This document shows, piece by piece, positions 4,040-64,000 of a stretch of DNA of 64,000 nt (positions within the stretch are counted from its first letter, which is position 1; each line of letters opens with the position of its first letter). Where the stretch lies: contig CAVXJS010000010.1 in assembly GCA_963762145.1 (NCBI GenBank), forward strand, positions 260,203 to 324,202, written 5' to 3'. The notes under the pieces are model-generated. The model had not been told where the DNA came from and searched no databases. It saw nothing but the letters and a program-made list of their open reading frames with translations. The position numbers and the translations under genes are program-made. The DNA is from an uncultured Candidatus Rokubacteria bacterium (lineage in GTDB: Bacteria > Methylomirabilota > Methylomirabilia > Rokubacteriales > CSP1-6).

Positions 4040-5857
<1,818 letters not shown>

Positions 5858-16661: not shown

Positions 16662-16766
16662 CGTGGGTCCATGATACTTGAGCCGGGTATGCCACTCGCC
16701 ACGCTTGAACGCACGTCGGGCGGCAAATTGACTCAGATCGTACGCGACACTTATAGTGTCGCTACC

Positions 16767-18145
16767 ATGGCGCGACCGAAACGCGGCGAGATTCTGTCCA
16801 TGACGATCGACGACCTCGCCTTCGGAGGCGAAGGCGTCGGCCGCGCCGACGGCTACGTCGTGTTCGTGCCGGGCGGCCTGCCCGGCGATCGCCTGCGGGT
16901 CCGGCTCGTGCAGGCGCGCGCCGCGCTTCGGCCGCGGCGTCATCGAGGCCATCGAGGAGCCCTCGCCGCAGCGCGTGCGACGCGCCGTGCCCATACTTCG
17001 GGCGCTGCGGCGGCTGCCGCCTCCAGCACATGGCCTATCCGGCCCAGCTCGCCTTCAAGGCCAAGCAGGTGGCGGACTGCGCTGGAGCGCCTCGGCGGCC
17101 TCGGCGCGTCGAGCTCCGGCCGATCATCGGCGCGCCCGCGACCTTCGGGTACCGCAACAAGATGGAGTTCACGGTGGCGCGGCGCGCGACGGAGCCGCTC
17201 GTGGTGGGGCTCCACGAGGCCGAGCGCTACGACGCGGTGCTCGACATCGAGCGCTGCCTGCTCCAGTCCGACCGCATGAACGCCCTGCTCGGCGAGGCGC
17301 GCGCGCTTCTTCGTCGAGCGCGGCGCTCACCGTCTACGACCAGGACAGCGGCGAGGGGCTGCTGCGCTTCCTGATGCTGCGCGAGGGCACCGACACCGGC
17401 GAGACTCATGGCCAACGTGGTCACCTCCGCGCCCGCGGTGTCCGAGCTGGCCCCGCTCGCCGCGCGGCTGCAGCGCGCGCGTGCCGGGGACGACCAGCGT
17501 GGTCATGAACGTGAACCCCAAGAAGGCCAGCGTGGCGGTCGGCGTCGAGGAGCACCTGCTGGGCGGCCGCGACCACATCCGCGAGGGCATCGGCGGGCTC
17601 ACCTTCCAGGTCTCGGCGAGCTCGTTCTTCCAGACCAATACCCGACAGGCCGAGCGGCTCTTCGAGCTCGTGCTCGAGGCGGCCGGCCTGACCGGGACCG
17701 AGACGGTCTGCGATCTCTACTCCGGCACGGGCGCGATCAGCCTGCTCCTGGCCCGCCGCGCCGGTGGGTCTACGGCATCGAGGTGGCGCAGGCCGCGGTG
17801 GACGACGCGCGGCGGAACGCGGCGGCCAACGGGATCACCAACTGCACGTTCGTGTGCGGGCGAGGTGCGCTTCGTGCTGCCCGCCCTGATCGCGAAGGGC
17901 GTGACCGCCGAGGTGGTGGTGGCCGATCCGCCGCGCGCGGGGTTCCATCCCAAGGCGCTCGCCGCGCTCGTCGCGCTGGCGCCCGCCGCATCGTCTACGT
18001 GTCGTGCAACCCCACCACGCTCGCCCGCGACCTGGGCGAGCTGGTGCGCGGCGGCTACCGGCTCGAGTGGGTGCAGCCGGTCGACATGTTCCCGCACACC
18101 CCGCACATCGAGGCGGTGGCCCGGCTGGAGCGCGTGGGCTCGTGA
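16767..18145 (+). pseudogene. rlmD: 23S rRNA (uracil-C5)-methyltransferase RlmD/RumA family, several frameshifts as assembled
   Basis: TRAM domain (MTIDDLAFGGEGVGRADGYVVFVPGGLPGDRLRV), then ..YPAQLAFKAKQV..GYRNKMEFTV.., ..[27 protein letters not shown].. and ..[31 protein letters not shown] in different frames. Confidence 0.8.
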
Positions 18146-50288: not shown

Positions 50289-52109
50289 ATCTCTCCAAGC
50301 TCAAACGATGGTTCGTGGGCACGCCGATCGCGACGGCCCAGGCGCACCACGAGCGGCTCGGCCCGGTCACCGGTCTCGCCGTCTTCGCTTCCGACAACCT
50401 CTCCTCGGTGGCGTACGCCACCGAGGAGATTCTGCGTGTGCTCCTCCTCGCCGGGGTGGGGGCGCTCGCGTTCTCGGTGCCCATCGGCTTCTGCATCGCC
50501 GCGGTGATCGGGATCGTGATCATGTCGTACCGTCAGAACATCGCGGCGTACCCGCAGGGCGCCAGCGACTACATCGTGGCCAAGGACAACCTGGGGGTCT
50601 TCCCGGGCCTGACCGCGGGCGCCGCCCTCCTCATCGACTACACCCTGACGGTGGCGGTGAGCGTCTCCGCCGGAGTCGCCGCGCTCACCTCCGCCTTCCC
50701 GGTGCTCTACCCGTACCGGGTCGTGCTCGGCGTGGGCCTGGTGGTGCTCGTCGCGGTGGCGAACCTGCGGGGCATTCGCGAGTCCGGCCGGGTGTTCGCG
50801 GTGTGGAGCTACCTGTTCATCGCCGGGTATGCGCTGCTGATGGTCTACGGCTTCGCGGCGCTCGCGATCTGGGGCCGCCCCCCGGTGGAGTCGGTCGCGC
50901 CCCCTCCACCGCCTCTCGCCGAGCTCGGCGTGTTCCTGCTCCTGCGTGCCTTCGCCTCCGGCGCGGTCGCCCTCACCGGGATCGAGGCGGTCTCGGACGG
51001 CACCCCGGCGTTCCGGCCGCCGGAGGTGCGCAACGCGCAGACCGTGCTCGCGGTCCTCGGCGTGATCATGATCACGCTGTTCCTCGGCATCACGGTGCTG
51101 GCGGCCAGCTACGAGATCGTGCCGCACGACCAGGAGACCGTGGTCTCCCAGCTCGCCCGCGAGGTCTTCGGGGGCGGCCTGCTCTACTACTTCATCCAGG
51201 GCGTCTCGATGGTCATCCTGGCCCTCGCGGCCAACACCGCGTTCGCCGACTTCCCCCGGCTGGCGTCGTTCATGGCGCGCGACGGGTTCCTGCCCCGGCA
51301 GTTCGCGAGCCGGGGCGACCGGCTGGTGTTCTCGAACGGGGTCATCATCCTGGCGGTGGCCGCGTCGGCGCTGATCGCGCTCTTCGACGGGAGCACGCAC
51401 TCCCTGATCCCGCTCTACGCCCTCGGGGTCTTCACGTCGTTCACGCTGTCGCAGGTGGGCATGGTGCGCCGCTGGCTCACGCAGCCGCCCCGCGGGATGG
51501 CGGCCGAAGGCGCTGATCAGCGGGCTGGGCGCGGCGACCACCGGGCTCGTGATGGTGGTCACCGCGCTCGCCAAGTTCTCGGACGGGGCGTGGATCGTGG
51601 TGGTGATCGCGGGCGCCCTCATCGCGGGCTTCGTGAGCATCAACCGCCACTATCGCGAGGTGGCGGGCCAGCTCTCGCTCGACGGCTACGCGGGGCCGCC
51701 GCCCATGCAGCACACCGTGCTCGTCCTGGTCGGCGATCTCCACAAGGGGGTCGTGCAGGCGCTGCAGTACGCGCGCACCCTCTCGCCGTCGGCCAAGGCG
51801 GTCTACGTGGAGATGGATCCGGAGAAGACGCGCCGGCTCGAGGAGAAGTGGGGCAAGTGGGGCTTCGGCGTGCCGCTGGTGGTGCTGACGTCACCCTACC
51901 GGCTGCTGCTGTCGCCGCTGCTCGACTACGTGGACCATCTCCTCGCGCTCGGCGAGAACCACATGGTGACCATCGTCATCCCCGAGTTCATTCCGGCCAA
52001 GTGGTGGCAGCAGCTCCTCCACAACCAGACCGCGCTGGTGATCAAGGGCGCGCTGCTCTTCCGGCGAAATGTGGTGGTCACGGACGTCCCGTACCACCTG
52101 CGGAGGTAG
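50285..52109 (+). pseudogene. APC-superfamily permease, KimA-like, copy 2, one frameshift near 51490
   Basis: MNLSKLKRWFVGTPIATAQAHHERLGPVTGLAVFASDNLSSVAYATEEIL.. is collinear with copy 1 over its whole length. The ATG overlaps the copy 1 stop (ATGA). Confidence 0.7.
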
Positions 52110-52167: not shown

Positions 52168-53139
52168 ATGAGCTCGTTCCCGACCCTGCAGGCACCGCTC
52201 GTCACGATCCGGTCGGCGACGGCAGCCGATCATGACGCGTTGCAGGCCCTCGAGGGTGCCGCCCCGGACTCGCGGGCGAGCCTGCTCCAGGCCCGGCGGA
52301 ACTTCTTCTCCCGGATGGCCGCCTACGACCGTACCCATGTCCTGGTCGCCGAGCAGGAGGGCCGGGTGGTCGGGGTCCAGTGCCTGGCCCTGACTCCCGT
52401 GCGGGTGGCGGGTCAGCCCTGCGCGGCCGGGTACTCGTTCAATACCCGCGTCGCGCCCGCCCACCAGACCCGGGGCCTCGGCACCCGGCTCATGAAGGCC
52501 GGAGCCGAGTGGCTCGAGCGCCAGGGCTGTCGCTATGTCACGGGCCTCATCGGCATCTCCAACACCGCGTCAATGAAGATGGTTGGGGCGCTGGGCTGGG
52601 AGACCGCGGGGCGCTTCGACTATCTGATCCTGGATCTGGCCCGGTTCGAGCCCGACCCGGCCGTGCGCATCCGGAAGGTGGATGCGCTCGGGGATCCGGC
52701 CCATGCCGCGTGGCGGTTCGGGGAGGTCTCGCTCCACCACTTCGTACCGCGGTACCTGGTCTCGGAGCTCTTCACGCCGTACCCCAAGGGCGCCTACATG
52801 GGGAGCTTGACCGCGTTCGGACCCGGGGGTAGCGCCTGGGTCTCCCTCTGGGACGACCGGGTCCGGCGTGGCCTGGATCCGGAGGTGGTCCGGGCGGTCA
52901 AGGCCTATGACGTGACCCTCAAGGGGGTGGGGGGCTTCCGCGCCTTCTCGGGCATCGCCAATACCCTCCGGGAGGCGGGTCTCGATCATGTCCTGATGCC
53001 GCTCCCGCACGATCCCGCGATGCGGGAGGTCCTGGAGCCCTACGCGGCGGAGATCCTGGAGTTCAATTTCGTCATCAAGCGACTGAACGGCGCGGGGCCC
53101 CTCCCCCCGGGCCCCATCTACTTCGACATCCGGCACTGA
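52168..53139 (+). CDS. GNAT-family N-acetyltransferase with extra C-terminal domain
   Basis: ..VLVAEQEGRVVGVQC.. and ..RVAPAHQTRGLGTRLMKAGAEWLERQG.. (acetyl-CoA binding Q/RxxGxG/A), followed by about 170 unassigned residues. Confidence 0.7.
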   Translation: MSSFPTLQAPLVTIRSATAADHDALQALEGAAPDSRASLLQARRNFFSRMAAYDRTHVLVAEQEGRVVGVQCLALTPVRVAGQPCAAGYSFNTRVAPAHQTRGLGTRLMKAGAEWLERQGCRYVTGLIGISNTASMKMVGALGWETAGRFDYLILDLARFEPDPAVRIRKVDALGDPAHAAWRFGEVSLHHFVPRYLVSELFTPYPKGAYMGSLTAFGPGGSAWVSLWDDRVRRGLDPEVVRAVKAYDVTLKGVGGFRAFSGIANTLREAGLDHVLMPLPHDPAMREVLEPYAAEILEFNFVIKRLNGAGPLPPGPIYFDIRH

Positions 53140-53417
53140 GCCGGTCGCCGGTTGCCGGCGCTGCGTTCCGCTGCCCGGACGCCTCTGGTACACTGAAGCG
53201 CCGTCATGGAGGCAAGCTTCGTCGTCCCGGGCCCCCTGGACGTGGCCGGGACGCTCTCCCGGTTCCACCTCTGGGTCGGAGACCCGGCCAACCGATTCGC
53301 CGACCCTGTCGCCCTCCCGGCGCCGGGACGCCCAGTGGTTTCCGGTCCGTCGTGTGGACCGGGGCGTGCGATGAGTGAGCCGGCGGTGCGCCGCCGCGCT
53401 GCTGCAGGAGGTGGGGC

Positions 53418-53750
53418 GTGACGCCGCTCGGGAAGTTCCTCCCCATCGTCGGCCAGCCCGATCCGGCCAAGCCGAAGGACGTGCACCTGGTCGGCCGGTA
53501 CGCGCTCGGCGTCACCTGGGCGGACGATCACGGCAGCATCTATCCATTCGATCGGCTCCGGCTGGACGATCCCGCGGGCGGCGAGGTCGACCAAGCGGCC
53601 GCGCTCACCCAGGAGATGACGTGGCCGAAGGAGATCAAGAAGCTCCCGGATACGCTGCGGGTGCTGTGGCTGGACGGCCGCGAGAGCCTCTACCCGTACT
53701 CCACGCTCCGCGCGCTCTGCCGGTGCGCGGGCTGCACGGGTGGCCACTGA
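53418..53750 (+). CDS. DUF971-domain protein
   Basis: ..LVGRYALGVTWADDHGSIYPFDRLR.. and ..LWLDGRESLYPYSTLRALCRCAGC.. as in DUF971 (gamma-butyrobetaine-hydroxylase N-terminal-like) proteins. Confidence 0.7.
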   Translation: MTPLGKFLPIVGQPDPAKPKDVHLVGRYALGVTWADDHGSIYPFDRLRLDDPAGGEVDQAAALTQEMTWPKEIKKLPDTLRVLWLDGRESLYPYSTLRALCRCAGCTGGH

Positions 53751-55198
53751 TGAGCGGGGAGCTGGACGTGGCGACGCGCCGAGGGCTGGTGCTGAGCGGC
53801 GTGATGGCCGCCGTGTTCCTGGCCGCGATGGAATCCACCGTGGTGGCCACCGCGATGCCCACCGTGATCGCCAGCCTGGGTGGCATCCGGATCTACTCGT
53901 GGACGTTCTCCGCGTTTCTCCTGACCTCCACCGTGACGATGCCGATCTGGGGCCGGCTCGCCGATCAGATCGGCCGGCGGCCCGCGTACCTGGCCGGGCT
54001 CGCGCTCTTCCTCCTCGGCTCGGCCCTCGCGGGGCTGTCACGCAGCATGGAGCAGCTCATCGCGTTCCGCGCGCTGCAGGGACTGGGGGCGGGGTCCCTG
54101 ATCTCGATCGGCATGACCATCGTCGGCGACCTCTACGGGGTCGAGCGGCGGGCGAAGATGCAGGGCTACTTCTCGAGCGTCTGGGGCGTCGCGTCCCTGG
54201 TCGGGCCGCTCGTGGGCGGTCTGCTCACGGATCGCGTGTCCTGGCGCTGGGTCTTCTACATCAACATTCCGTTCGGCCTGCTCGCCGCGGTGGCCATCGC
54301 GATCGGGCCTGCGCGATGAGCGCCGGGATCGGCCGCGCGGGTCATTCGACCTGCTCGGCATGAGCGTGTTCGCGGCCGCGATCTCGGCCCTGCTGGTGGG
54401 CCTGGTCGAGATCGGGGCGGGCGATCCCCGTCGGACGACCGGGACTCGCGCTGCTCGTGCTCTCCGCGGTGCTGCTCGTGCTGTTCGTTCTCTTCGAGCG
54501 CCAGGTGGCCGATCCGGTGATCCCGCTCCGTCTCTTCGCCAATCCGGTCCTGCGCGCGGCCGCGGTCACCGGCTTGCTCTCCGGGATGGCCATGTTCGGC
54601 GCGCTCACCTACGTGCCGCTCTACCTGCAGGCCGTCACCGGCAGCACTGCGACCCAGGCCGGCTGGGTGCTGATGCCGTTCGTGCTGGGCTGGGTGGTCT
54701 TCTCGGTGGTGGGCGCCCGGCTCGTGATGCGCGTGGGCTACCGGCGCGTCGTCCTGGCCGGGATGACCGCGCTCGTGCTCGCCTTCGTCTTGCTCGCGGG
54801 CTGGGACGAATCGCTCACGCGGCTCACCGCGGCCCGTGACATCACGCTCGCGGGCGTCGGCATGGGGCTGGTCTTCGTGCCGATGCTGATCGCGGTGCAG
54901 AACTCGGTGCCGCGATCCCTGCTGGGGTCGGCCACCTCGCTGACCGGATTCTTCCGGACGGTGGGCGGCGCGCTGGGGGTCACGGTGATGGGGGCGGCGA
55001 TGACCCACCGGCTCGAGCGGGCCCTCGATGGGGTCGTGGCGACCGCGCCGGTCGAGCTGCAGGAGCCCCTGCGCTGGCTGGCCGCCCATCCGGATCTCGC
55101 GGTCAACCCGATCACCCGGGCGACACTCGGCGAGGCCCTGCTGGGCCAGATGCGCCCGGTGCTGGCTCACGCGATCGGCGGGGTGTTCGTGGTCGGCC
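53750..55198 (+). pseudogene. MFS transporter (DHA2/EmrB-like), at least 3 frameshifts, extreme 3' end missing
   Basis: ..AAMESTVVATAMPTVIASLGG..PIWGRLADQIGRRP..FRALQGLGAG... Later TM segments lie in two other frames. Recognisable sequence stops inside the last TM (..AIGGVFVVGL) at about 55198. Confidence 0.75.
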
Positions 55199-55199
55199 T

Positions 55200-55532
55200 G
55201 TCCAGAAGAACAAGTACGGGCTGCCGGCGGTCACGCTCCGGGTCTTCAACGTCCTGAACGTGGACGCCTACCGGCTGCTCGACCACGCGGAAATGCTGGC
55301 GTTCCTGGGCGAGGCGGGGCTCGAATCGGTGCCCCAGCTCGGGACGCTGGTGCTGAACCACACGGTGGACGAGCTGGTGGCCTTCTCCGAAGGGACGAGC
55401 GTGCTCAACCCGAAGGTCCAGCGGGAAGGCGTGGTGCTTCGCCCGCTCGCGGAGGAGTATGACGAGGACATCGGCGGCCGGCTGAGCTTCAAGGCGATCA
55501 ATCCGAAGTTCCTGCTGAAGTACGACGAGTAG
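55200..55532 (+). pseudogene. ATP-dependent RNA ligase family, C-terminal fragment only (about 110 aa)
   Basis: The frame reads VQKNKYGLPAVTLRVFNVLNVDAYRLLDHAEMLAFL..VPQLG..SVLNPKVQREGVVLRP..GGRLSFKAINPKFLLKY. This resembles the C-terminal third of DRB0094/Rnl5-like RNA ligases as I recall them. No N-terminal adenylyltransferase motifs are present upstream. Confidence 0.55.
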
Positions 55533-55610
55533 GCGGGCGGCTGCGTGGCGAGGGTCAGGTCCTCGCCACCGCCCGAACCACGAAGATCGGCAACGCGATA
55601 TCGGGTCCCC

Positions 55611-56513
55611 ATGAGCACCCTGCAACGCCTGACAGACCGTGGCCTGATCCGGCCGCCGCGATGGCTGCCCGGGAACGTCCAGTACGAGACGATCATGGGC
55701 TCGGTGGCCTACGGGGTGTCCTCGGATACGAGCGACGTCGACGTCTACGGCTGGGCGATCCCGCCGAAGGAGGACATCTTCCCCCACCTCCGGGGCGAGG
55801 TCCCCGGCTTCGGGCGCCAGGCGAAGCGGTTCGAGCAGTTCCAGGAGCACCATATCCAGGACCGGGACGCCCTCGCCGGGCACGGCCGGAGCTACGACCT
55901 GGCGATCTTCGGCATCGTCAAGTTCTTCGCCCTGGCGATGGAGAACAACCCGAACATCATCGACTCCCTCTTCACGCCCACGACCTGCGTCCTGCACAGC
56001 ACTCGGGTGGGCAACCTCGTGCGGGAGAACCGGCGGCTGTTCCTGCACAAGGGGGCCTGGCCGAAGTTCAAGGGGTACGCCTACAGCCAGCTGCACAAGC
56101 TGGCGATCAAGGAGCCGCAGGGCAAGCGGGCCGAGCTGGTCGCCGAGCACGGCTTCGACACCAAGTTCGGCTACCACGTCGTCCGGCTCATCGGCGAGGT
56201 GGAGCAGATCCTGATGGAAGGCGACATCGACCTCCAGCGCAATAACGAGCAGCTCAAGGCGATCCGCCGGGGTGAATGGACCGAGGAGCGTCTGCGTCAG
56301 TGGTTCGCGGACAAGGAGGCGGACCTCGAGCGCGTGTTCGCCGAGAGCACGCTCCGGGCCGTGCCGGACGAGGCGGGGCTGCGAGCCCTGCTCCTGAACT
56401 GCCTGGAGGAGCATTACGGCAGCCTCGAGGGATGCGTCGTGGACCCCGATCGGGCGGTCGTCGCCCTGCGGAACATCCAGGCCGAGCTGGAACGGGTGAA
56501 GGACCTGCTATGA
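55611..56513 (+). CDS. Pol-beta-superfamily nucleotidyltransferase, PF10127 (Nuc-transf/RlaP) type, paralog 1
   Basis: ..YETIMGSVAYGVSSDTSDVDVYGWAIPP.. (GS-x-D-x-D NTase motif), ..KFFALAMENNPNIIDSLF.., ..AYSQLHKL... Confidence 0.7.
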   Translation: MSTLQRLTDRGLIRPPRWLPGNVQYETIMGSVAYGVSSDTSDVDVYGWAIPPKEDIFPHLRGEVPGFGRQAKRFEQFQEHHIQDRDALAGHGRSYDLAIFGIVKFFALAMENNPNIIDSLFTPTTCVLHSTRVGNLVRENRRLFLHKGAWPKFKGYAYSQLHKLAIKEPQGKRAELVAEHGFDTKFGYHVVRLIGEVEQILMEGDIDLQRNNEQLKAIRRGEWTEERLRQWFADKEADLERVFAESTLRAVPDEAGLRALLLNCLEEHYGSLEGCVVDPDRAVVALRNIQAELERVKDLL

Positions 56514-57287
56514 GCGAGGACCGGACCGTGGACGTCGATGAACGGCTCAGGCAGGAGGTCGCCCGCCACCCGTACCCGCTGGTCTTCGCCACGATCAGCG
56601 GGGCGCACCTCTACGGCTTCCCGTCGCCCGACTCGGACTACGACCTGCGGGGCTGCCACGTCCTGCCGGCGCGGGAGGTGGTCGGCCTCGACGTCGGGCC
56701 GGAGACGATCGAGTCCTCGAAGGACGAGGACGGGCTCGAGCTCGACCTGGTCACGCACGACGCCCGGAAGTTCTTCGGCCTGATGCTGAGGAAGAACGGC
56801 TACGTGCTGGAGCAGCTGTACTCGCCGCTCGTGGTCCACACCACGCCCGAGCACGAGGAGCTGAAGGCGATCGCCCGCGGGCTGCGTCACGAGGTACCAA
56901 GCCCACCACTACTTCGGGTTCGCCGAGACGCAGTGGAGGCTGTTCGACAAGGAGCGGCCCCGGCGGGTCAAGCCGCTGCTCTACGTCTACCGGGTTCTCC
57001 TCACGGGCATCCACCTGATGCGAACGGGCGAGGTCGAGGCGAACCTCGTGCGGCTCAACGTGGAGGCCCGGCTCTCGCACGTCGATGACCTCATCGCCCG
57101 GAAGATCGCCGGGCCCGAGAAGTCGGCCCTCGACGATGCCGACGTGGCGTTCCACCGACGGGAGTACGAGCGGCTCAGGGCCGAGCTGGAGGCGGCCCAT
57201 CAGTCCAGTTTGCTGCCCGAGACGCCGACCGCCCGGCCGGCCCTGAATGACCTGCTCGTGCGGATGCGGATGCGAACGGCGGGGTGA
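56510..57287 (+). pseudogene. Pol-beta-superfamily nucleotidyltransferase, PF10127 (RlaP) type, paralog 2, one frameshift near 56880
   Basis: ..LVFATISGAHLYGFPSPDSDYDLRGCHVLP.., ..KFFGLMLRKNGYVLEQLYSPL... After a frame switch: ..QAHHYFGFAETQWRLFDKE..KPLLYVYRVLLTGIHLM... The ATG overlaps the paralog 1 stop. Confidence 0.7.
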
Positions 57288-57394
57288 GCGGCTTCGCCCG
57301 CCGCCAGGTCTGCGGCCATCGGTTGTTATCCGGCCCCCAATCGGTCACGATGATCGCTCCACTTACAGTTGTCGAAGGCGCGAGATCGTGACCG

Positions 57395-58369
57395 ATGAAG
57401 AACGTGGGTTGGCTCTTCCTGGCGGTCCTCATCGCGTATGGCTGCGCCGTGGTCGCGCCGCTCCTGCGATACCGGCTTCGGGGTGGGGTCGGCGCCTTCG
57501 TCGGCTGGTGCTTCGTGCCGATGATCCTCGCCTGCCCATTGCTCATCCCGTCCGCGAACGTCGGGCTGCGGGCCGCGTCCGCCTTCGCATCGGGCGACAT
57601 CACCTTCAAGATGGTCGACTACTTTCGCCATTGGGGCCACGTGGACCGGAGCATCGTCCTTCGCGAGTACTACCGCTTCCTGATCCCGTTCCCGGTCCTC
57701 TCCGCCGTCTATCCCGATCACAAGCGCCGGTTGCTGCGTCCGGAGAGCCCCTGGCCGCAGGTCCTGCGCCTCTTCGGTGGGATCGTCGGTGTCACCATGG
57801 CCCTCCTGGCGGTGAGGACTCTCTCCGGCATCGCCCAGGTCCGATCGAGCTTCGCGTTGAACCATGCCGTGATGTTGCCGACCTTCGTGCTCGCGATCGA
57901 ATCGCTCTCGCGGGCGCTCTGCGGGCTCGAACGCCTGGCGGGATTCGACACGACTCCGATCATCCGAAACGCCTACCTGTCGCGGACCGTCTCCGAGTTC
58001 TGGCGACGGTACAACGACCGGATCCATGACTGGCTCTACCGCAACGTCTTCCAGGCGACCGGAGGCCGACGCGCCCCGGTCCGTTCCGTGCTGCTGGTGT
58101 TCCTGGTCAGCGGCCTGTTTCACGAGGTGATGTTCGCGCTGGCGACCTCGCGACTGACCGGCTATCAGCTCGCGTTCTTCGCGATCCAGGGCCCGGCGGC
58201 GCTGGCCTCGGGACGCCTCGAGCGCCTGGCCAGGCGAGGCGGGATCGCGGGCAAGATCGCGGCCCACGGGGCCACGATCCTCTTCGTCGCCGTCACGTCC
58301 GTCCTCTTCTTCGACGGGGTCGGCAAGATCTTCCCCTTCATCTATGCCAGCCAGTCGCCGCTGCCGTAG
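57395..58369 (+). CDS. MBOAT_2 / wax-synthase-like membrane acyltransferase
   Basis: 324-aa polytopic ORF with ..VSEFWRRYNDRIHDWLYRNVF.. and ..GLFHEVMF.. (conserved His). Codon third positions are visibly less GC-rich than in core genes. Confidence 0.55.
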   Translation: MKNVGWLFLAVLIAYGCAVVAPLLRYRLRGGVGAFVGWCFVPMILACPLLIPSANVGLRAASAFASGDITFKMVDYFRHWGHVDRSIVLREYYRFLIPFPVLSAVYPDHKRRLLRPESPWPQVLRLFGGIVGVTMALLAVRTLSGIAQVRSSFALNHAVMLPTFVLAIESLSRALCGLERLAGFDTTPIIRNAYLSRTVSEFWRRYNDRIHDWLYRNVFQATGGRRAPVRSVLLVFLVSGLFHEVMFALATSRLTGYQLAFFAIQGPAALASGRLERLARRGGIAGKIAAHGATILFVAVTSVLFFDGVGKIFPFIYASQSPLP

Positions 58370-58540
58370 GACGCGTTCCCCAGGTGTCCGTTCAGTGACA
58401 CCACGTCGCTCGTGAGTGTCCTTCGCCAAACGGATAGCGATTGGTGCTTGCGTGCAAAAGTTGGTGGGGTGGCTGCTACAGGAAGGCGAACCGTGAAGCA
58501 GGGCCCACCAGGGCGAATAGCCGGATGAGTCCGATAGCGG

Positions 58541-59133
58541 CTAACCACGGATGGCCTGGATCGCTCGTCCGCTTGCCAGCCGGACCACCACGTCCTTGTC
58601 CTCGAGCGCCGCGGTGAGGGCCGGGACGGCTCCCTGGCGTCCGGGCCAATCCGGCCCAGCGCCCCGCGCTGGCGCAGCGGACATTCCCTGCTCGTCCTTG
58701 AGCGCCGCGGTGAGGGCCGGCACGGCCTCCCTGGCATCCGGGCCGATCCGGCCCAGCGCCTCCGGCTCTCGCCAGCGTCCCAAGCGCCTCGGTGAGGGCC
58801 GGCACGGCCTCCTTGGCCTCCGGGCCAGATCTCTGTCCGCGCCCGAGGCATCGAGCCCGACGACCGGCATCGCGGCATCCGGCCTACCGCGTCCCTGAGC
58901 GGTGCGATGAGGGCCGGCACGGCCTCCCTGGCATCCGGGCCGATCCTGCCCAGCGCCTCAGCGGACTACCCGGACCTCGTCCTTGAGCGCCGCGATGAGG
59001 GCCGGCACGGCCTCCCTGGCAGCCGGGCCGATCCGAGCCCAGCGCGTGCGCGGCATTGCCTGCAGCGGACACTCGAATCCCCGTCCTTGAGGCCCGCGAT
59101 GAGGCCTTCGACTCGTTCCTGCAAATCGGACAT
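58541..59133 (-). pseudogene. HEAT (PBS-lyase-type) repeat protein, decayed or mis-assembled
   Basis: ATG at 59133 with a GGGAG RBS (MSDLQERVEGLIAGLKDGDSSVR..). AVPALTAALKDE.. / ..ALGRIGPDAREAVPAL.. units are spread over all three frames. The DNA repeat starts are spaced 96, 82, 115, 88 and 104 bp. Confidence 0.6.
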
Positions 59134-59865
59134 GACAACTCCCAGATTAAATACCCGGGGCGGTGGGGGAGAACACCTCCCTCGGCACCGCCTCCGCCGC
59201 GGGCGGTCGATGGACCGCCGGCGACGGAAGCGACGCCGTGAAAACCCTTGCCTCGCGTAGCAGCGCAGCCCGGGCCGGGGCCCCGGGGGGCCTCCGCGAG
59301 GGCAGCGCATCATCTATATATAGAAATCAGACCCGAGATTGAGAGGGCAAAGAGCGGGGTCTCGAAGAGACTGGAACGGTGGAGAGTGAAATCTAGTGAA
59401 ATTATTGCGACATGTCAATATCGCCGGAATTTGGCTGCTTCAGGACGGACGTGCGGGAGCAGGGACCCGGCCAGGGGAACAATTGCATCCTCCGGTCCGG
59501 GCGAAGACGGGTGACGACCCGGAAGAATCCCCGACCGGGATCGGCCCGAGGCCCTTCCGGAACAAGTCTCGAATCGGCGCGAACATCTTCGGCGACTCCT
59601 GCGTCTACAGTGGCATGCAAGGCAAGGCGATGGCCCATGTGAGCGGCCTCGCCGAAGCGGCTCGAGGCACCGAAACGACCGAGGTCACGATGTTTGCCGT
59701 GTGGACCAGTCACCCCTGTAAGCGATCCGGAGCGGGTCGTCTCGCCGGTCAACCGGCGTATTCGCTGCCCGTCCCTCCGCTGCGCCTGTGACGCCCCGGC
59801 CGACGCAACCTCGACGGTTCGCCCCGGGCCCGGCGTCATGAGACAGCCGGGCCTCTTCGTTGGAT

Positions 59866-59937
59866 GGGCCGGTAGCTGAGACGGTGTAGCGGCGGCCTGA
59901 AGAGCCGCAGACGTGGATTCGAGCGCCACCCGGCCCA
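59866..59937 (+). tRNA. tRNA-Phe (GAA), no CCA
   Basis: gggccgg ta gctg agacggtg tagc g gcggc ctGAAga gccgc agac gtgga ttcgagc gccac ccggccc a. It has a 4-nt variable loop and one A.G mismatch in the T stem. Confidence 0.7.
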
Positions 59938-59949
59938 CTCTCAAAGAAT

Positions 59950-60022
59950 GGCTCGTTCGTCTATCGGCCGAGGATACCGCCCTTTCAAGGCGAAGAGGTG
60001 GGTTCGATTCCCACACGGGCTA
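59950..60022 (+). tRNA. tRNA-Glu (UUC), no CCA
   Basis: ggctcgt tc gtct atcggccga ggat a ccgcc ctTTCaa ggcga agag gtggg ttcgatt cccac acgggct a. It closely resembles the classical bacterial tRNA-Glu body and has two G.U pairs in the acceptor. Confidence 0.75.
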
Positions 60023-60036
60023 CTCGCAGGAACGAT

Positions 60037-60110
60037 CAGGGCGTGGGAAAGCCTGGCAATCCGCAAGCTCGGGGGGCTTGAGACCGCCGGTTCGAATCCG
60101 GCCGCCCTGA
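60037..60110 (+). tRNA. tRNA-Pro (GGG as drawn; CGG if one G of the G6 run is spurious), no CCA
   Basis: cagggcg tg ggaa agcctggca atcc g caagc tcGGGgg gcttg agacc gccgg ttcgaat ccggc cgccctg a. Position 33 is C instead of U, and there is an A.A pair in the D stem. Confidence 0.6.
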
Positions 60111-60188
60111 CTCACAGACAGAACTCGTAGCGAGGACCGAGGCGATGGTCTGGATCAAACGCATACCCCGGCACGAGGTCTCCCGACC

Positions 60189-60259
60189 GGGGTCGTGGTG
60201 TAGCGGCAGCATGTCGGCCTTTTAAGCCGGTCGGCGGGGTTGAAATCCCTCCGGCCCCA
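60189..60259 (+). tRNA. tRNA-Lys (UUU), no CCA
   Basis: ggggtcg tg gtgt agcggca gcat g tcggc ctTTTaa gccgg tcgg cgggg ttgaaat ccctc cggcccc a. The T loop is TTG instead of TTC, and the first T-stem pair is mismatched. Confidence 0.6.
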
Positions 60260-60331
60260 TGGCGCCTCGCTCAACGGGAGAGCGCTCGCCTTATAAGCGA
60301 ACGACGAGGGGTTCAACTCCCCCGGCGCCGA
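60260..60331 (+). tRNA. tRNA-Ile (UAU), no CCA
   Basis: tggcgcc tc gctc aacggga gagc g ctcgc ctTATaa gcgaa cgacg agggg ttcaact ccccc ggcgccg a. It starts 0-1 nt after the preceding tRNA and has a U1.G72 pair. Confidence 0.6.
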
Positions 60332-60354
60332 CCAACGGGAGAAGCAAACAGAGG

Positions 60355-60425
60355 CGGCCTGTCGTTCAACGGGAGAACACCCGGCTGATAACCGGGCGGC
60401 GGAGGTTCGACTCCTCCCTGGCCGA
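60355..60425 (+). tRNA. tRNA-Ile (GAU), no CCA
   Basis: cggcctg tc gttc aacggga gaac a cccgg ctGATaa ccggg cggc ggagg ttcgact cctcc ctggccg a. It has the same D loop as the UAU species and one U.U mismatch in the acceptor. Confidence 0.65.
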
Positions 60426-60440
60426 CTCGCGATGGCTATC

Positions 60441-60513
60441 GGGACTGAAGTTCTAGCGGCAGAACGTCCGGCTCTTAACCGGTTCGGTGAGGGTTCGAGC
60501 CCCTCCGGTCCCA
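60441..60513 (+). tRNA. tRNA-Lys (CUU), no CCA
   Basis: gggactg aa gttc tagcggca gaac g tccgg ctCTTaa ccggt tcggt gaggg ttcgagc ccctc cggtccc a. Position 8 is A instead of U. Confidence 0.65.
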
Positions 60514-60523
60514 CTCCGATGCT

Positions 60524-60595
60524 GCACTGGTCGTCTAGCGGCGAAGATTCCGCCCTCGTAAGGCGGGGACGTGGGTTCGAGTCCCACCCGGTGCT
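60524..60595 (+). tRNA. tRNA-Thr (CGU), no CCA
   Basis: gcactgg tc gtct agcggcga agat t ccgcc ctCGTaa ggcgg ggac gtggg ttcgagt cccac ccggtgc t. All stems pair. The D arm, anticodon stem and T arm are near-identical to the Glu gene at 59950. Confidence 0.75.
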
Positions 60596-60611
60596 CTCGG
60601 CCCTCTTTGCA

Positions 60612-61216
60612 CTTCCATCTGCAGGCAGCCGTTGTGCGCGGTGACGACCTGGTAGCTGAAGCCGGCGGCGAGCAGCAGGTCGGGCGGGTCAGGCCGTGGC
60701 GGAGCAGCCAGCCGGGTCCGAGCTCGCCGCCGAACTCCTCGTCGTAGGTGAAGTGCAGCTCGACCGCGCCCTTCAGCGGCAGGTTCAGCGCCTTCGAGCG
60801 CGCGCAGCGCGAAGGTGTAGGTCGCGAAGTCGCTCTTGCTGACCGCCGAGGCGCGGCCGTAGAGCTTGCCGTCGGCGACCTCGCCGCCGTAGGGATCGTG
60901 GGTCCAGCCGTCGCCGGGCGGCACGACGTCGCCGTGCGCGTTGAGGGCGATCGTCGGGCCGTCGCCGTGGCGGCGCCGCACGATCAGGTTGGTCAGCGAT
61001 TCGAGCCCGTAGGCCGCGACATCGTCGGCCGGGACCGGCGTGGCGCTCGGCCTCGAGGCCGAACTCGGCGAGCAGTTCGGCGGTGCGTTCGGCGTGCGGC
61101 GCATTGCGGCCGGGCGGGGTGTCGGTCGGGACCTGCACCAGCGCCTGCAGGAAGCGGACTTCCTCGGCGAAGTGCGCGTCGACCCAGCGGTCGAGTTGTT
61201 CGTACGGAGTGGTCAT
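60612..61216 (-). pseudogene. M20-family metallopeptidase (ArgE/DapE-like), N-terminal about 200 aa only, frameshifted
   Basis: MTTPYEQLDRWVDAHFAEEVRFLQALVQVPTDTPPG.. then ..LIVRRRHGDGPTIALNAHGDVVPPGDGWTHDPYGG..GRASAVSKSDFATY..AGFSYQVVTAHNGCLQMEV. Similarity ends about 15 nt from the tRNA-Thr 3' end. Confidence 0.65.
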
Positions 61217-61242
61217 GCGGTGTCGACGGCTGGCGGCGTCCG

Positions 61243-63119
61243 TCAGCGGGTCGTTTCGGCGGCCACCTGGTCGAGCAGGCGGGCGAATGCCTCGACGGCG
61301 AGCTGGATGTCGTCGTTGGTGCTCGATTCGAGCGGGTTGTGGCTGATGCCGGCGTTCTCGCCGCGCACGAACAGCATGCCCTGCGGCATCACCTCGTGCA
61401 GCTTCATCGCGTCGTGGCCGGCGCCGCTCGGCATCCGGTGCGGCGGCAAGCCGGCCGCCTCGACCGCGCGGGCCCAGTGCTGCTGCCACTCGGCCGCACA
61501 CGGCGCGGCGGCGGCGCGCATCGTCTCCTCGATCCGGTAGCTCAGGCCGCGCCGCTCGCAGATCGCTTGCAGCTCGCGCGAGCACGTCGTGCGCGCAGGC
61601 GTCGCGCACCGGGTCGGTCGTCGAGCGGATGTCGAGCGTGAACTGGCAGCGGCCCGGGATCACGTTGGTCGAGCCGTTCGGCACGTTCAGGATGCCCATC
61701 GTGCCGACCACGTTCGGCTCGGCCGCCGCGCGCTCCTCGAGGTAGAGCGCGAGCTCGGCGACCGCGGTCGCGGCGTCGCGGCGGCGGTCCATCGGCGTCG
61801 TGCCGGCGTGGCTCGCCATGCCGATCACCTCGCCGGCATAGCGCACGCCGCCGTTGATCGACGTGACGACGCCGAGCGGCAGGTCGAGCTCGTTCAGGAC
61901 CGGGCCCTGCTCGATGTGCAGCTCGACGAAGCCGAGGTACATCGAGGGGTCGCGGCGCAGCGACGCGATCGTCGTCGATGCGCAGGCCGGCCTGCTGCAT
62001 CGCGTCGCGCATCGCGACGCCGTCGGCATCGAGCTGGTCGAGCCAGGCCGGGTCGAACTGGCCGACCAGCGCGCCCGAGCCGAGGAACGTCGCCTTGTAG
62101 CGCTGGCCTTCCTCCTCGGCGAAGCCGACGACCTCGAAGTCGTAACGGCAGGCGCCGGCCGGCGCGGTGCAGCTCGCGCACGCAGGCCATCGGCGCGAGG
62201 ATGCCGAGGCGCCCGTCGTACTTGCCGCCGTTGCGCACGGTGTCGTAGTGGCTCCCCGTCAGCAGCCGCCGGCTGCTGACAGGGGCCACTTCGTGGTTGA
62301 ACGGGCCCGACCCCTCCCGCTCCCGCCCCGTCCAGGGGAGGGCCTGACGCGTTCGGCAAGCGTGGTGTCGCTCCAGTAAACACCGACGACGTTGCCGACC
62401 GCATCGATCGAGACCTCGTCGAAGCCGCACTCGTCGCGCATCCAGGCGACCAGCTGCGCCGCGCAGGCGCGGTGCGCGTCGGTCAGGTAGGTGACCGTCA
62501 GCTGTCCCAGCTCGGCATAGCCGGGGTCGGTGTGCCGGGCGAGCGATTCGGCCCAGTCCCAGACGAGGTTGCCGAGCTCCGGCGTCACGCCGAACTTGTC
62601 GTCGAGGCGGATCTCGGCGATGCGGTGGATGTTGCGCAGGCACTCGGCGAGCTCGAAGTCGGGGTGGTTCGCGAGTCGGCGCTCGAAGGTCGCGATGATC
62701 TGCCGCGCGGCTCAGGCCGGCGCCGCGCGGGCCGCGCACCGCGAGGATGAACGGCCAGCCGAACTTGGCGTTGTAGTCGGCGTTGAGCCGCTGGATCCGC
62801 GCGAACTCGTCCGGCGTGCAGTCGGTCAGGCCGGCGCGGCCCTGCTCGTTGCGTCGACTCCGCGGTCAGGCTCTGGCTGACCATCGCCTTGCCGGCCAGC
62901 TCCGGGTGGGCGCGCACCAGCGCGATCTGCTTCTCGCGCCCGCTGCCGCGCACGACCTCGACGAGTGCACGCTTCAGCGCCGCGAGGCTCGCGAACGGCC
63001 GCGCGCCCGCGGCCTGCGCCGGCGATCCACGGCGAATGCTCGTAGGTGCCGTCGAGCAGCGCGGTGAACTCGTCGCGCGAGGCGGCGTTCAGTCGGTCGA
63101 GCGTCAGCACAGCGGGCAT
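61243..63119 (-). pseudogene. fused OHCU decarboxylase / allantoate amidohydrolase-like protein, many frameshifts
   Basis: N-terminus MPAVLTLDRLNAASRDEFTALLDGTYEHSPWIA.. and ..VRAHPELAGKAMVSQSLTAESTQ.. (OHCU decarboxylase). It continues without an obvious stop into ..LTVTYLTDAHRA..DAVGNVVGVY.., ..LLTGSHYDTVRNGGKYDGRLGI.., ..ELHIEQGPVL.., ..MPSGAGHDAM..FVRGENAGISHNPLE.. (M20 amidohydrolase). Confidence 0.6.
62306..62344. repeat. degenerate REP-like element inside the allantoate-amidohydrolase-like coding region
   Basis: cccgacccctcccgctcccgcccc-gtcca-ggggagggcc resembles the ccctcgcccc-N4-gggggagaggg unit of copy B. It adds a Pro/Gly/Arg-rich stretch (..RPSPGRGGSGRG..) where homologues I recall are shorter. 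Confidence 0.4.
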
Positions 63120-63129
63120 CGAGAAAGCC

Positions 63130-64000
63130 TCAGAGGGTCACGCGGATCGTCTTGACCAGCGGCGCGAGCGCTCGCCACCTGGTCGCGCACGAACGCGTTG
63201 AATTGCGCCGGCGTGCCCGGCGTGGCGGTCACGCCGAGCTCGAGCAGGCGCTGCCTGATCTCGGGCTGGGCGAGCACTTCGTTGACCGCGGTGTTCAGGC
63301 GTGCGACGAGGTCGGCCGGCATCTTGGCCGGGCCGGTCAGGCCGAAGAAGTTGTCGAGCACGAGCTTGCGGTAGCCGGCCTCGACGACGGTCGGCACGTC
63401 GGGCACGAGCGGCGAGCGCTGCGACGACGTCACGGCGAGCGGGCGGATCTGGCCGCTCTTGAAGTACGGCACGAACGCGGTCACGACGTCGATGCCGACC
63501 GGGATCACGCCGGAGATCAGGTCGGTCGTCATCGGCGCGCCGCCGCGGTACGGCACGTGGCCCATCTTGATGCCCATCGTGCGCATCATCAGCTCGCCGT
63601 AGATGTGGCCGATCGAGGCCGGGCCGCCGGAGCCGAACTGCAGCTGGCCCGACTTGCGCGCGGCGTTCTCGAGGTCGACGATGGTGTTGATGCCGGTCGC
63701 CGGATTCGCCATCACGACGCACGGCGCCGAGCCGATCGCCGCGATGTGCGTGAAGTCGACGAGCGGGTCGTACGGCTGCTTCTCGAGCGCGAACGGGCCG
63801 ATCGAGATCGGCGTCGAGTTCGACAGCATCAGCGTGTAGCCGTCGGGCGCCGACTGGGCGACCGCGCTGCCGCCGACGCTGCCGCCGGCGCCCGGCCGGT
63901 TGTCGACGATCACCGCCTGGCCGAGCCGCTTGCCGAGCTGCTCGCCGACGACGCGGGCGACGATGTCGCTGGCGCCGCCGGCCGCAAACGTGACGACGAT
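63130..64000 (-). pseudogene. tripartite tricarboxylate transporter substrate-binding protein (Bug/TctC family), 5' end outside window, one frameshift near 63175
   Basis: ..IVDNRPGAGGSVGG..PDGYTLML..VPYRGGAPMTTDLISG..QIRPLAVTSSQRSPLVPDVPT... A frame switch gives the tail ..ALAPLVKTIRVTL and a stop at 63130. Confidence 0.75.

Follow-up and report, generated by a model that had tools for sequence, protein, structure and literature searches.

Eight tRNA genes on a Methylomirabilota contig are the stump of a long planctomycete tRNA array, probably carried there by a misjoined assembly

Eight tRNA genes packed into 730 bp of a metagenomic contig raise the question of whether a bacterium of the Rokubacteria type possesses an accessory tRNA operon or whether these genes came from elsewhere. 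In the window, that is the whole stretch of 64,000 nucleotides that we analysed, we observed eight co-oriented tRNA genes at 59866-60596 on the + strand, found by ARAGORN and by Rfam RF00005. A sequence-only reading had placed eight genes on one strand at these positions, and both searches agree with it on coordinates and anticodons, ARAGORN having recovered every one of them. All eight score well above the RF00005 gathering score of 29. The genes, with two elements that accompany them, are the following.

59826-59854, + strand: GC-rich hairpin with a U-rich run after it, 11 nt 5' of tRNA-Phe; fold energy -23.7 kcal/mol
59866-59937, + strand: tRNA-Phe(GAA), Rfam 56.6 bits; same sequence as the copy in contig L121 (see below); 4 covarying base pairs among orthologues
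59950-60022, + strand: tRNA-Glu(UUC), Rfam 49.6 bits; C27-A43 mismatch confined to the window copy
60037-60110, + strand: tRNA-Pro(GGG), Rfam 51.1 bits; C33, kept in orthologues
60111-60188, + strand: 78-nt spacer, kept in orthologous arrays according to the alignment
60189-60259, + strand: tRNA-Lys(UUU), Rfam 46.5 bits; T-arm damaged
60260-60331, with CCA to 60334, + strand: tRNA-Ile(UAU), Rfam 44.6 bits
60355-60425, + strand: tRNA-Ile(GAU), Rfam 63.2 bits
60441-60513, + strand: tRNA-Lys(CUU), Rfam 51.9 bits; A8, kept in all orthologues
60524-60595, + strand: tRNA-Thr(CGU), Rfam 56.7 bits; final gene before the break

The spacers, measured from the discriminator base to the next gene, are 12, 14, 78, 0, 23, 15 and 10 nt, and our remeasurement gave the same picture as the earlier one (0-23 nt plus one gap of 78 nt). 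Such a density is far above chance, since only two other tRNA genes are supported by Rfam in the remaining 63 kb (61.1 and 56.7 bits). These two, a tRNA-Met and a tRNA-Gln of the host, encode CCA, as had been reported. The companion statement that none of the eight array genes does so is right for seven of them but fails for tRNA-Ile(UAU), which is directly followed by CCA at 60332-60334. This triplet lies within a relic (60332-60345, CCAACGGGAGAAGC) that resembles a D-arm and repeats the motif of the Ile D-arm. C-T-C stands right after the discriminator base in six of the seven other array genes.

If these genes were an ordinary housekeeping tRNA cluster of the host, their good scores would be explained, and nothing further. 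The array genes, Ile(UAU) excepted, differ from the host tRNAs by the missing CCA, their orthologues are planctomycete, and none of the 19 syntenic loci that we scanned in related Methylomirabilota contains a tRNA gene. A housekeeping cluster has in our opinion practically no chance of being the correct explanation, and the earlier view that the genes belong to an accessory, horizontally spread class of tRNA arrays, and not to the housekeeping tRNAs of the host genome, holds.

We observed that positions 55179-60609 of the window align as a single block, with about 92-98% identity, to three Isosphaeraceae-type contigs: L121 (91.7% over 5506 nt), L176 (92.6-94.8%) and, partially, L175 (94.4-98.0%). 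The same eight genes, in unchanged order and spacing, begin the arrays of these three contigs, which comprise 40 tRNAs in L121 (12475-17462), 40 in L176 (13595-18023) and at least 24 in L175, where the array runs to the contig end. Gene order and spacing are also the same in the planctomycete MAGs L117 (38 tRNAs), L115, L110 and L111. Homology to L117, L121, L175 and L176 stops at 60600-60609, and their arrays go on with Gly(GCC) and more genes, co-oriented and closely spaced like the eight of the window (spacers 0-78 nt, + strand). These alignments show that the eight genes are the leading eight of an L-array, a long tRNA array that has spread horizontally and is native to Isosphaeraceae planctomycetes. 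What had been described as a compact array of eight is really the 5' end of a 40-gene array, of which full copies exist in Isosphaeraceae-type contigs. The array is seen in no fewer than 7 independent contigs, among them one from an Illumina assembly, and a misassembly of the full arrays in L117, L121 and L176 is therefore unlikely.

The flanks of the array differ among L110, L111, L115, L117 and L121, and L122, a sister contig with 95% identity around the MBOAT gene (listed below), does not contain the array. L122 carries the domains DUF1501, PSCyt2 and PSD1, which we take to be planctomycete hallmark domains. In the donor contigs the array is located among ordinary planctomycete chromosomal genes, with no integrative-element genes alongside in the stretches seen; the carrier loci analysed were 8-21 kb long. 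The Ile pattern matched at least 4 of 185,579 species representatives within the array family. The distribution is patchy and the genomic context varied, which indicates a horizontal spread of the array. Homology between arrays of differing genome contexts begins at the upstream hairpin, equivalents of which are present in L117, L115 and L121, and this hairpin marks the conserved left edge of the array unit. The window copy fails the T-run rule of the terminator/promoter scan that we used; the L117 version has a better T-run.

These relatives bear on the proposal that the eight genes form a self-contained accessory operon, which would read rare A/U-rich codons (AAA, AUA, GAA, UUY) or serve a mobile element. 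Indeed, all eight score as good tRNAs, several of their anticodons read A/U-rich codons, and the host's own tRNAs differ in style, with CCA encoded. However, it is the breakpoint and not selection that sets the number eight: the orthologous arrays add 30 or more tRNAs, which serve all other amino acids, G/C-rich anticodons included, and the break lies only 13 nt past the Thr gene. Taken together, the full arrays serve all 20 amino acids and their anticodons end in G/C as well as in A/U, and the codon bias noticed earlier is a product of which eight genes precede the cut. In addition, the scan detected no promoter-like site on the array strand between 58.3 and 60.8 kb, the locus is missing from all related genomes examined, and tRNA-Lys(UUU), one of the members supposed to be key, has a defective T-loop in the window copy only. 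We consider such an operon highly improbable.

The structural deviations that had been listed for these tRNAs are all present, that is C33 in tRNA-Pro(GGG), whose anticodon loop is UCGGGGG, a TTG T-loop in tRNA-Lys(UUU) (UUGAAAU, where orthologues have UUCGAAU), A8 in tRNA-Lys(CUU), U1-G72 in tRNA-Ile(UAU), and a mismatched 27-43 pair in three genes (Glu, Ile(UAU) and Lys(CUU)). As peculiarities of the array, however, they stand only in part. Conserved traits of the array family are C33 in tRNA-Pro, A8 in tRNA-Lys(CUU) and 3' ends that lack CCA and start with C-U, and such conserved deviations evolve with compensatory changes. The T-arm defect of Lys(UUU) and A43 in Glu and Ile(UAU) are window-specific lesions or consensus errors; in the window copy of Lys(UUU) a run of five G has lost one G, and the gene scores 46.5 bits versus 60.8-62.2 bits in four orthologues. 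The eight orthologue sets show 15 covarying base pairs in total, and these compensatory changes mean that the tRNAs stay foldable in their native hosts, where the array is predicted to be functional.

The window carries rpoD, dnaG, dnaB, groEL and the gene of ribosomal protein L25, and its GroEL is 97-100% identical to those of MAGs named Methylomirabilota bacterium; judged from these genes, its backbone is a Methylomirabilota (Rokubacteria-type) chromosome. The region around the array is composed, from left to right, of the following other genes.

53375-55200, + strand: host MFS transporter gene, frameshifted (Pfam MFS_1 in two frames); about 36 C-terminal codons lost at the left junction
55201-55532, + strand: C-terminal fragment of an RNA ligase gene (PF09414 RNA_ligase, profile positions 86-171 of 171, 30 bits)
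55611-56513, + strand: RlaP nucleotidyltransferase 1 (PF10127), 300 aa, intact; 83-92% identical to Isosphaeraceae proteins
56510-57287, + strand: RlaP nucleotidyltransferase 2, with a frameshift from a 1-nt insertion near 56878
57395-58369, + strand: MBOAT-family acyltransferase of Isosphaeraceae type (PF03062), 324 aa
58342-59313, - strand: degraded or frameshifted HEAT-repeat gene in several reading frames, with weak HEAT_2 and HEAT_PBS matches
60610-63107, - strand: Burkholderiales-like segment with an M20 (ArgE/DapE-like) gene, then an OHCU decarboxylase/allantoate amidohydrolase gene (Pfam, tblastn)
63104-64000, - strand: TctC-family solute receptor gene (PF03401, 202 bits), cut by the window end

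The MBOAT protein is 98% identical to those of L121 and L175 and 88% identical to that of Singulisphaera, and the direct repeats of the HEAT-repeat gene recur every 82-115 nt, in most cases about every 90-96 nt. The gene context of the array is not native: it lies in a 5.43-kb planctomycete block within a Methylomirabilota contig, followed by Burkholderiales-like DNA. The junctions are all within genes and the synteny of 22 related contigs is lost, which points to a chimeric assembly or to the capture of a dead fragment. At the left junction (55200/55201) the host MFS gene and the donor RNA ligase gene are both cut. At the right junction (60609/60610) the array is cut 13 nt past the Thr gene and a truncated M20 peptidase gene follows, whose Variovorax counterpart extends past that point. 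About 80% nucleotide identity to the Variovorax plasmid NZ_CP070344 begins exactly at 60610; a BLAST search of the array against plasmids returned single-tRNA matches and one 41-nt Variovorax match, through which the foreign right flank was later recognised. The tblastn frames of the Burkholderiales-like segment change at least 5 times.

The related Methylomirabilota contigs that extend to the counterpart of position 55200 number 22, and every one aligns with the window as far as 55199/55200 and diverges after it. In these contigs the MFS ORF is intact and longer, and downstream of it every one of the 22 keeps a conserved region of 5-7 kb that is missing from the window. No match to 60610-64000 was found among them, and no relative shows an empty site in which the MFS gene is joined directly to the M20 gene. 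Both foreign segments are outliers in composition: compared with the host, the planctomycete block has a tetranucleotide correlation of 0.898 and the right-hand segment one of 0.896, for host pieces of the same size it is 0.965 ± 0.015 with a minimum of 0.926, and the block correlates at 0.969 with the L121 flanks and the right-hand segment at 0.919 with Variovorax.

We propose, with a probability of roughly 60%, that 55201-60609 was brought in by a chimeric long-read metagenome assembly. The 5.43-kb block would come from a random part of an Isosphaeraceae chromosome and would abut, blunt end to blunt end, on Methylomirabilota DNA at the left and on Burkholderiales-like DNA at the right, a chimeric read or a misjoin at low coverage having extended the contig; the array would then have no function of its own here. 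Frameshifts are dense in both foreign segments and their density climbs toward the right end of the window, which fits a falling read coverage. Some features do not favour a chimera: the block sits within a 331-kb contig, three-part chimeras are uncommon, and the RlaP1 and MBOAT ORFs are intact, so that the quality of the block is not uniformly poor. The sequences joined at both junctions share a weak, partial similarity, which microhomology-mediated joining inside a living cell could explain just as well, and a shared habitat of donor and host is probable and makes a genuine transfer possible.

Such a transfer would mean that a 5.4-kb Isosphaeraceae piece and the neighbouring Burkholderiales-like piece entered the Methylomirabilota chromosome by illegitimate recombination as a dead insert. 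An end-joining or microhomology-mediated event would have destroyed the end of the MFS gene, and the eight tRNAs would be passengers in a decaying insert, at most weakly expressed. This scenario agrees with the sharp junctions free of adapter-like filler, with the partial similarity at both joints and with the position of the block inside a large contig, and organisms of the donor type recur in assemblies with nearby ENA analysis accessions (ERZ250394xx-ERZ250395xx). Several lesions of this copy would fit decay after the transfer, namely the damaged T-arm of Lys(UUU), A43 in both Glu and Ile(UAU), the frameshift in RlaP2 and the HEAT-repeat pseudogene. However, frameshifts are also found in adjacent host genes that Illumina assemblies show intact, pointing to consensus error and not to decay. 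It would also require two unrelated foreign fragments back to back, each ending within a gene, and the hallmarks of a mobile element are missing: we found neither target-site duplications nor terminal repeats at the junctions, nor integrase or transposase genes in a Pfam search of 45-64 kb. Host synteny does not return within 8.8 kb, the insert is present in none of the 22 related contigs, and the composition shows no drift toward the host. A real capture is thus possible in our opinion but rather doubtful. The chimeric assembly being preferred, the contig warrants a check for chimerism from about 55.2 kb on, and inferences on tRNA repertoire or codon usage for this Methylomirabilota MAG should omit the array. 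A more general caution is that a seeming non-canonical accessory tRNA operon can be the stump of a far larger array in a probably misjoined block.

The array could also have been a phage- or ICE-borne tRNA cluster, located in one of the host's prophages or integrative elements. Phage tRNA clusters (T4 with SegB, mycobacteriophages, jumbo phages), for which a role in escaping tRNA-cleaving defences was proposed (PMC10264068), have a comparable gene density, can contain an endonuclease gene within the array and include Ile(UAU), and the conserved non-canonical anticodon loop with C33 in Pro(GGG) is a further likeness. The Ile D-arm type of the array family is otherwise almost confined to viral arrays; indeed, five IMG/VR contigs have the same unusual tRNA-Ile D-arm, all in phage arrays of 10-31 genes. 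An HNH ORF (PF01844, 48 bits) lies between His and Trp inside the L117 array, with a degenerate copy in L121; the window fragment contains no endonuclease gene. However, no phage structural, integrase or conjugation genes were detected by Pfam in 45-64 kb, BLAST found no match of the array in phage genomes, two array-specific patterns are unmatched in IMG/VR, and the setting of the array in the donor contigs is chromosomal, among ordinary planctomycete genes and without phage genes nearby. A loose pattern of three anticodon loops matched about 100 stretches in IMG/VR; the contigs concerned were all AT-rich, and this gene order did not occur in any of the stretches. The phage or ICE reading is largely refuted for the window and we give it hardly any credit.

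The L-array itself is an already known kind of element. L-arrays were defined by Santamaria-Gomez et al. in 2021, with the 23-tRNA trn operon of Anabaena sp. PCC 7120 as an example, and Planctomycetes are among the phyla listed as having them (PMC8421152). The arrays of L121, L176 and L117 are likewise long (38-40 genes), co-oriented and non-periodic, they occur in varied contexts of related organisms and are missing from the near-identical sister contig L122, and an HNH homing-type endonuclease gene accompanies the L117 array. The gene order of the Anabaena array is unrelated to that of the planctomycete one. The tRNA array unit was delimited by Tran et al. in 2016 by a minimum of 20 tRNA genes and a density of 2 per kb or higher, as in Acidithiobacillus ferrooxidans and A. 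ferrivorans, and the few planctomycete cases recorded in that survey were judged independent insertions (PMC4758250). The native planctomycete arrays qualify, at 8 genes per kb (40 over about 5 kb), whereas the fragment in the window, which has no endonuclease gene and retains 8 of 40 tRNA genes within 0.73 kb, is below the 20-gene threshold. The window holds a fragment of an L-array member, not a member in its own right.

In its native form, the unit measures about 5 kb and has a GC-rich hairpin ahead of 40 tRNA genes in one orientation, with an HNH gene inside some copies. Nearly all array genes are without CCA and their 3' trailers mostly begin with C-U. From this gene anatomy, one precursor transcript would be cut by RNase P and RNase Z and finished by the CCA-adding enzyme. 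By analogy with the Anabaena L-array, the native array may supply supernumerary tRNAs that are normally quiet and come into use after damage to translation or to the tRNA pool. As a by-product of this analysis, the conserved 40-gene L-array family of Isosphaeraceae is modestly useful: with its fixed gene order, boundary hairpin, CCA-less C-U 3' ends, C33 tRNA-Pro and internal HNH gene as hallmarks, it is a reasonable test system for L-array function.

In some strains the array stands beside a mobile RNA ligase-RlaP-RlaP cassette. RNA repair operons composed of RNA ligase and RlaP (PF10127) have been described (PMC12776372), and the donor cassette comprises a 5'-phosphate-type RNA ligase (PHA02142 OB plus PF09414) and two RlaP. 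The Anabaena array is linked to rtcB by co-regulation, whereas the link to RNA repair in planctomycetes is physical adjacency in some copies. In the window this Rnl-RlaP system is not intact: RlaP1 is whole, RlaP2 is frameshifted (after frame repair it matches PF10127 positions 4-249 of 249 with 189 bits), and the ligase, which forms the left end of the block, is reduced to about its C-terminal third, lacking the OB domain at its N-terminus as well as the first half of the ligase domain.

A joint reading would regard the Isosphaeraceae 40-tRNA array as a self-sufficient "spare translation kit" that moves between phyla and is coupled to RNA repair in one lineage, the window being a genuine partial-island transfer from a planctomycete to Methylomirabilota. 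The non-canonical members would belong to the kit (C33 Pro(GGG), A8 Lys(CUU) and an Ile(UAU) reading AUA without lysidine), and the physically coupled RNA ligase-RlaP-RlaP cassette would counter tRNA-cleaving toxins. We regard this combination as unlikely.

RlaP and the array as a conserved functional pair were rejected as a general rule, since each occurs without the other. The RlaP loci of Singulisphaera, Tundrisphaera and L004 contain no tRNA genes within 10 kb, RlaP pairs in L001 and L004 and a single called gene in L005 have no tRNA gene nearby, and no RlaP gene lies next to the array in L110, L111, L115, L117 and L175. Cassette and array are thus mutually independent, L175 having the array without the cassette and L001, L004 and L005 having RlaP without tRNA genes. 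The complete RNA ligase gene (PHA02142 OB domain plus RNA_ligase) is found upstream in L121 and L176, and the cassette adjoins the array only in some copies, namely those of L121, L176 and the window.

The sequence-only reading had proposed a compact array of eight accessory tRNA genes, and ARAGORN placed eight tRNA genes on the + strand at 59866-60596, scoring 44.6-63.2 bits with the Rfam tRNA model (gathering score 29). The anticodons it had assigned were confirmed, namely Phe GAA, Glu UUC, Pro GGG, Lys UUU, Ile UAU, Ile GAU, Lys CUU and Thr CGU, with spacers of 12, 14, 78, 0, 23, 15 and 10 nt in that order. We also observed the structural oddities that had been listed: C33 in Pro, a UUGAAAU T-loop in Lys(UUU), A8 in Lys(CUU), U1-G72 in Ile(UAU) and 27-43 mismatches in Glu, Ile(UAU) and Lys(CUU). 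The other Rfam-supported tRNA genes of the window, Met (3938-4010, 61.1 bits) and Gln (12621-12691, 56.7 bits), both encode CCA as claimed; the statement that no array gene does so fails for Ile(UAU), which is followed by CCA at 60332-60334. ARAGORN also called an 84-nt tRNA-His at 2575-2658 (+), inside a minus-strand coding region, which has no Rfam match and is probably a false positive.

Features of the array and its neighbourhood
55201-55532, + strand: RNA ligase gene, C-terminal fragment (PF09414 profile positions 86-171 only)
55611-56513, + strand: RlaP nucleotidyltransferase 1 (PF10127)
56510-57287, + strand: RlaP nucleotidyltransferase 2 (PF10127; 1-nt insertion)
57395-58369, + strand: MBOAT gene
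Upstream of the array, on the opposite strand to it: degraded HEAT-repeat gene
59826-59854: GC-rich hairpin and U-rich run (also L117 ~3290-3316, L115 ~4990-5016, L121 ~12436-12462)
60332-60345, directly 3' of Ile(UAU): CCAACGGGAGAAGC, repeating the D-arm motif TCAACGGGAGA of both Ile genes
Downstream of the array, - strand: M20-family gene and OHCU decarboxylase/allantoate amidohydrolase gene, both frameshifted
Downstream of the array, - strand: TctC gene

Relatives were searched for with the unusual D-arm and anticodon loop common to both Ile genes (TCAACGGGAGA...CTKATAA). In IMG/VR this pattern was found in only five contigs, always inside phage tRNA arrays of 10-31 genes, and in 185,579 species-representative genomes at only ten loci, four of which lie in planctomycete MAGs (L110, L111, L115 and L117). 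The arrays of these four comprise 12 to 38 or more tRNAs and start with the same eight genes in the same order as the window, but after Thr they go on with Gly, Pro, Asn, Gly, Gly, Gln, Gln, Ser, Leu and others. Window 59827-60600 is 88% identical to the Illumina-assembled L117, the alignment ending a few bases past Thr. With the MBOAT protein as query we recruited further contigs (96-98% protein identity), and three of them, of Isosphaeraceae type, are collinear with the whole stretch: L121 matches 55179-60609 with 91.7% nucleotide identity over 5506 nt, L176 matches 55179-58958 and 59491-60609 with 92.6-94.8%, and L175 matches 57162-58441 and 59440-60609 with 98.0% and 94.4%. Their array extends over ~5 kb, with 40 tRNAs in L121 and in L176 and at least 24, to the contig end, in L175; L121 and L176 also carry a full-length RNA ligase gene upstream. 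It is thus firmly established that the eight genes are not a unit, as had been assumed, but the remaining 5' end of a 40-gene L-array (a long, horizontally spread tRNA gene array) of Isosphaeraceae type, and that this remnant sits in a 5.43-kb sub-fragment of a planctomycete chromosome truncated at both ends.

The surrounding DNA is different. The window carries rpoD, dnaG, dnaB, groEL and the ribosomal protein L25 gene, and GroEL shares 97-100% identity with proteins of MAGs named Methylomirabilota bacterium; the window therefore belongs to a chromosome of Methylomirabilota (Rokubacteria type), on a MAG contig of 330,995 bp. Anchoring on the GNAT gene (52168-53139), we retrieved 45 related metagenome loci. 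All 22 that were long enough align to 55199/55200 and then diverge from the window, continuing with 5-7 kb conserved among them and missing from the window; none of the 22 matches 60610-64000, and none of 19 related loci scanned has tRNA genes. At the left junction the host MFS gene is cut ~36 codons short and runs directly into the donor's RNA ligase gene at its middle. At the right junction array homology stops at 60609, and 60610-63063 is ~80% identical in nucleotide sequence to the Variovorax sp. PDNC026 plasmid NZ_CP070344 (ureide-pathway genes), beginning in the middle of the M20 gene, which extends further in Variovorax. In composition, too, this stretch is closer to Variovorax than to the host, and it thus forms a second foreign segment, next to the first with no gap. 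The gene context in which the array had been read is not a native one: planctomycete DNA lies between Methylomirabilota and Variovorax-like DNA, with junctions inside genes. Neither direct or inverted repeats bracketing the block nor an integrase or transposase gene was found.

Both foreign segments are set apart from the host by tetranucleotide profile. Host pieces of 3.4 kb correlate with the host at 0.965 ± 0.015 (minimum, 0.926), whereas the planctomycete block (55200-60609) gives 0.898 with the host and 0.969 with the L121 flanks, and the right-hand segment (60609-64000) gives 0.896 with the host and 0.919 with Variovorax. Near the block, two tandem amino-acid permease genes (48470-52109) and the MFS gene (53375-55200) are split by frameshifts, but they are single intact ORFs in L124, L131 and L134, which are Illumina-assembled relatives. 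The PRPP synthetase gene (prs, ~11557-12498) also appears frameshifted; frameshifts are seemingly sparser in 0-48 kb, and the right-hand segment has at least five frame changes in 2.5 kb. The pattern suggests that the contig contains indel errors whose density rises toward 64 kb, a gradient that would be expected from falling coverage in a long-read assembly.

Because three taxa are joined blunt-ended inside genes, synteny is lost, composition is unadapted and indels are dense, we infer that a chimeric assembly is the most economical explanation, with a probability of about 0.6. A genuine capture of foreign DNA through illegitimate recombination is the less likely alternative, and even then the host would hold a fragment without a recognisable promoter or the rest of the array, and bearing lesions. 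The window copy is thus probably an assembly artefact, and the array a further L-array, of a class already known. Kinship with such arrays is the part of the earlier interpretation that stands; an operon selected for A/U-rich codons is unsupported, since the choice of eight genes was set by the breakpoint.

In their native hosts the array tRNAs are probably functional: among 5-6 orthologues per gene, 15 stem pairs are changed on both sides with pairing kept, including four in Phe, three each in Ile(GAU) and Lys(CUU) and two in Ile(UAU). Several features first described as deviations are conserved traits of the array family, namely C33 in Pro(GGG) (4/4 copies compared), A8 in Lys(CUU) (6/6) and a 3' trailer beginning with C-U (15-20 genes in each array, of the 24-30 that Rfam detects). 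In the window, C-T-C follows the discriminator base in six of the seven genes other than Ile(UAU); the array's only CCA comes from CCAACGGGAGAAGC, which L117 has kept as well and which resembles a scar left by tRNA duplication. Other changes are found in the window copy only and could be decay or consensus errors. In the T-arm of Lys(UUU) one G is missing from a run of five (UUGAAAU versus UUCGAAU in orthologues), which costs ~15 bits (46.5 versus 60.8-62.2); A43 gives rise to a C-A mismatch both in Glu and in Ile(UAU); and the two Ile genes have C9 (60268, 60363) in place of the A9 of all orthologues, a parallel change in paralogues that suggests either gene conversion or systematic errors in base calling. 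The 78-nt Pro-Lys(UUU) spacer (60111-60188) is conserved in L121, L117 and L110, the last itself without the Pro gene, and L115 has an additional Pro(UGG) gene in this interval; the spacer may be what is left of a former tRNA gene, or else a short element under conservation. In L110, from a MAG named Planctomycetaceae, Pro(GGG) and Ile(UAU) were lost at ~1524-1713 by clean deletions between adjacent tRNA genes, which shows that arrays change by recombination between members.

As defined in the literature, the Isosphaeraceae array qualifies both as a tRNA array unit (PMC4758250) and as an L-array (PMC8421152), and both papers name Planctomycetes among the carriers. It is a variable, mobile-type element of Isosphaeraceae, because it is present in L121, L176 and L175 and absent from the sister contig L122. 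The latter contains DUF1501 and PSCyt2/PSD1 domains, which we take to be planctomycete hallmarks, and has the MBOAT gene and neither the array nor the repair cassette. The L117 array contains an HNH endonuclease ORF (PF01844; 6539-7213) between tRNA-His and tRNA-Trp, an arrangement that the L-array literature also reports for Anabaena and phage T4; the L121 copy (~15770-16950) is disrupted, with an AT-rich insert within. The hairpin lies 8-25 nt upstream of tRNA-Phe (-23.7 to -27.2 kcal/mol). Whatever the genomic context, homology between arrays begins on the left precisely at this hairpin, and the unit ends ~10 nt past tRNA-Cys. Although placed at the expected promoter site, the hairpin looks like a terminator, and is a candidate insulator, attenuator or recombination site.

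Packing too tight for individual promoters makes a polycistronic precursor likely, and the CCA-less ends with C-U trailers would imply 3' processing by RNase Z and then CCA addition. The full set could decode all amino acids, and its Ile(UAU) would need no lysidine modification to read AUA. By analogy with Anabaena-type arrays, which are quiet until translational stress (PMC8421152), the array may be silent until such stress. The conserved odd Pro(GGG) anticodon loop recalls phage tRNAs that evade anticodon nucleases (PMC10264068).

RlaP enzymes extend damaged RNA 3' ends by one or two nucleotides and partner RNA ligases in repair operons (PMC12776372). The RNA ligase (PHA02142 OB domain and PF09414)-RlaP-RlaP cassette, also found in L176, is a ~4-kb presence/absence difference between near-identical Isosphaeraceae contigs (L121 5822-9797 versus L122 9788-9820). 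RlaP genes 83-92% identical occur in three or more further contexts: L001 and L004 each hold a pair, and in L005 one gene was called. The cassette has the look of a small mobile module for RNA repair. A conserved pairing of RlaP with the array was rejected, as no tRNA genes lie within 10 kb of RlaP in Singulisphaera, Tundrisphaera or another contig. Finally, an Acidobacteriota MAG locus (L114) has a lone tRNA-Ile(UAU) with the same D-arm type (3348-3421), ~800 nt from an ORF (1565-2566) with tyrosine-recombinase-like motifs, and may be another mobile context for this Ile tRNA type.
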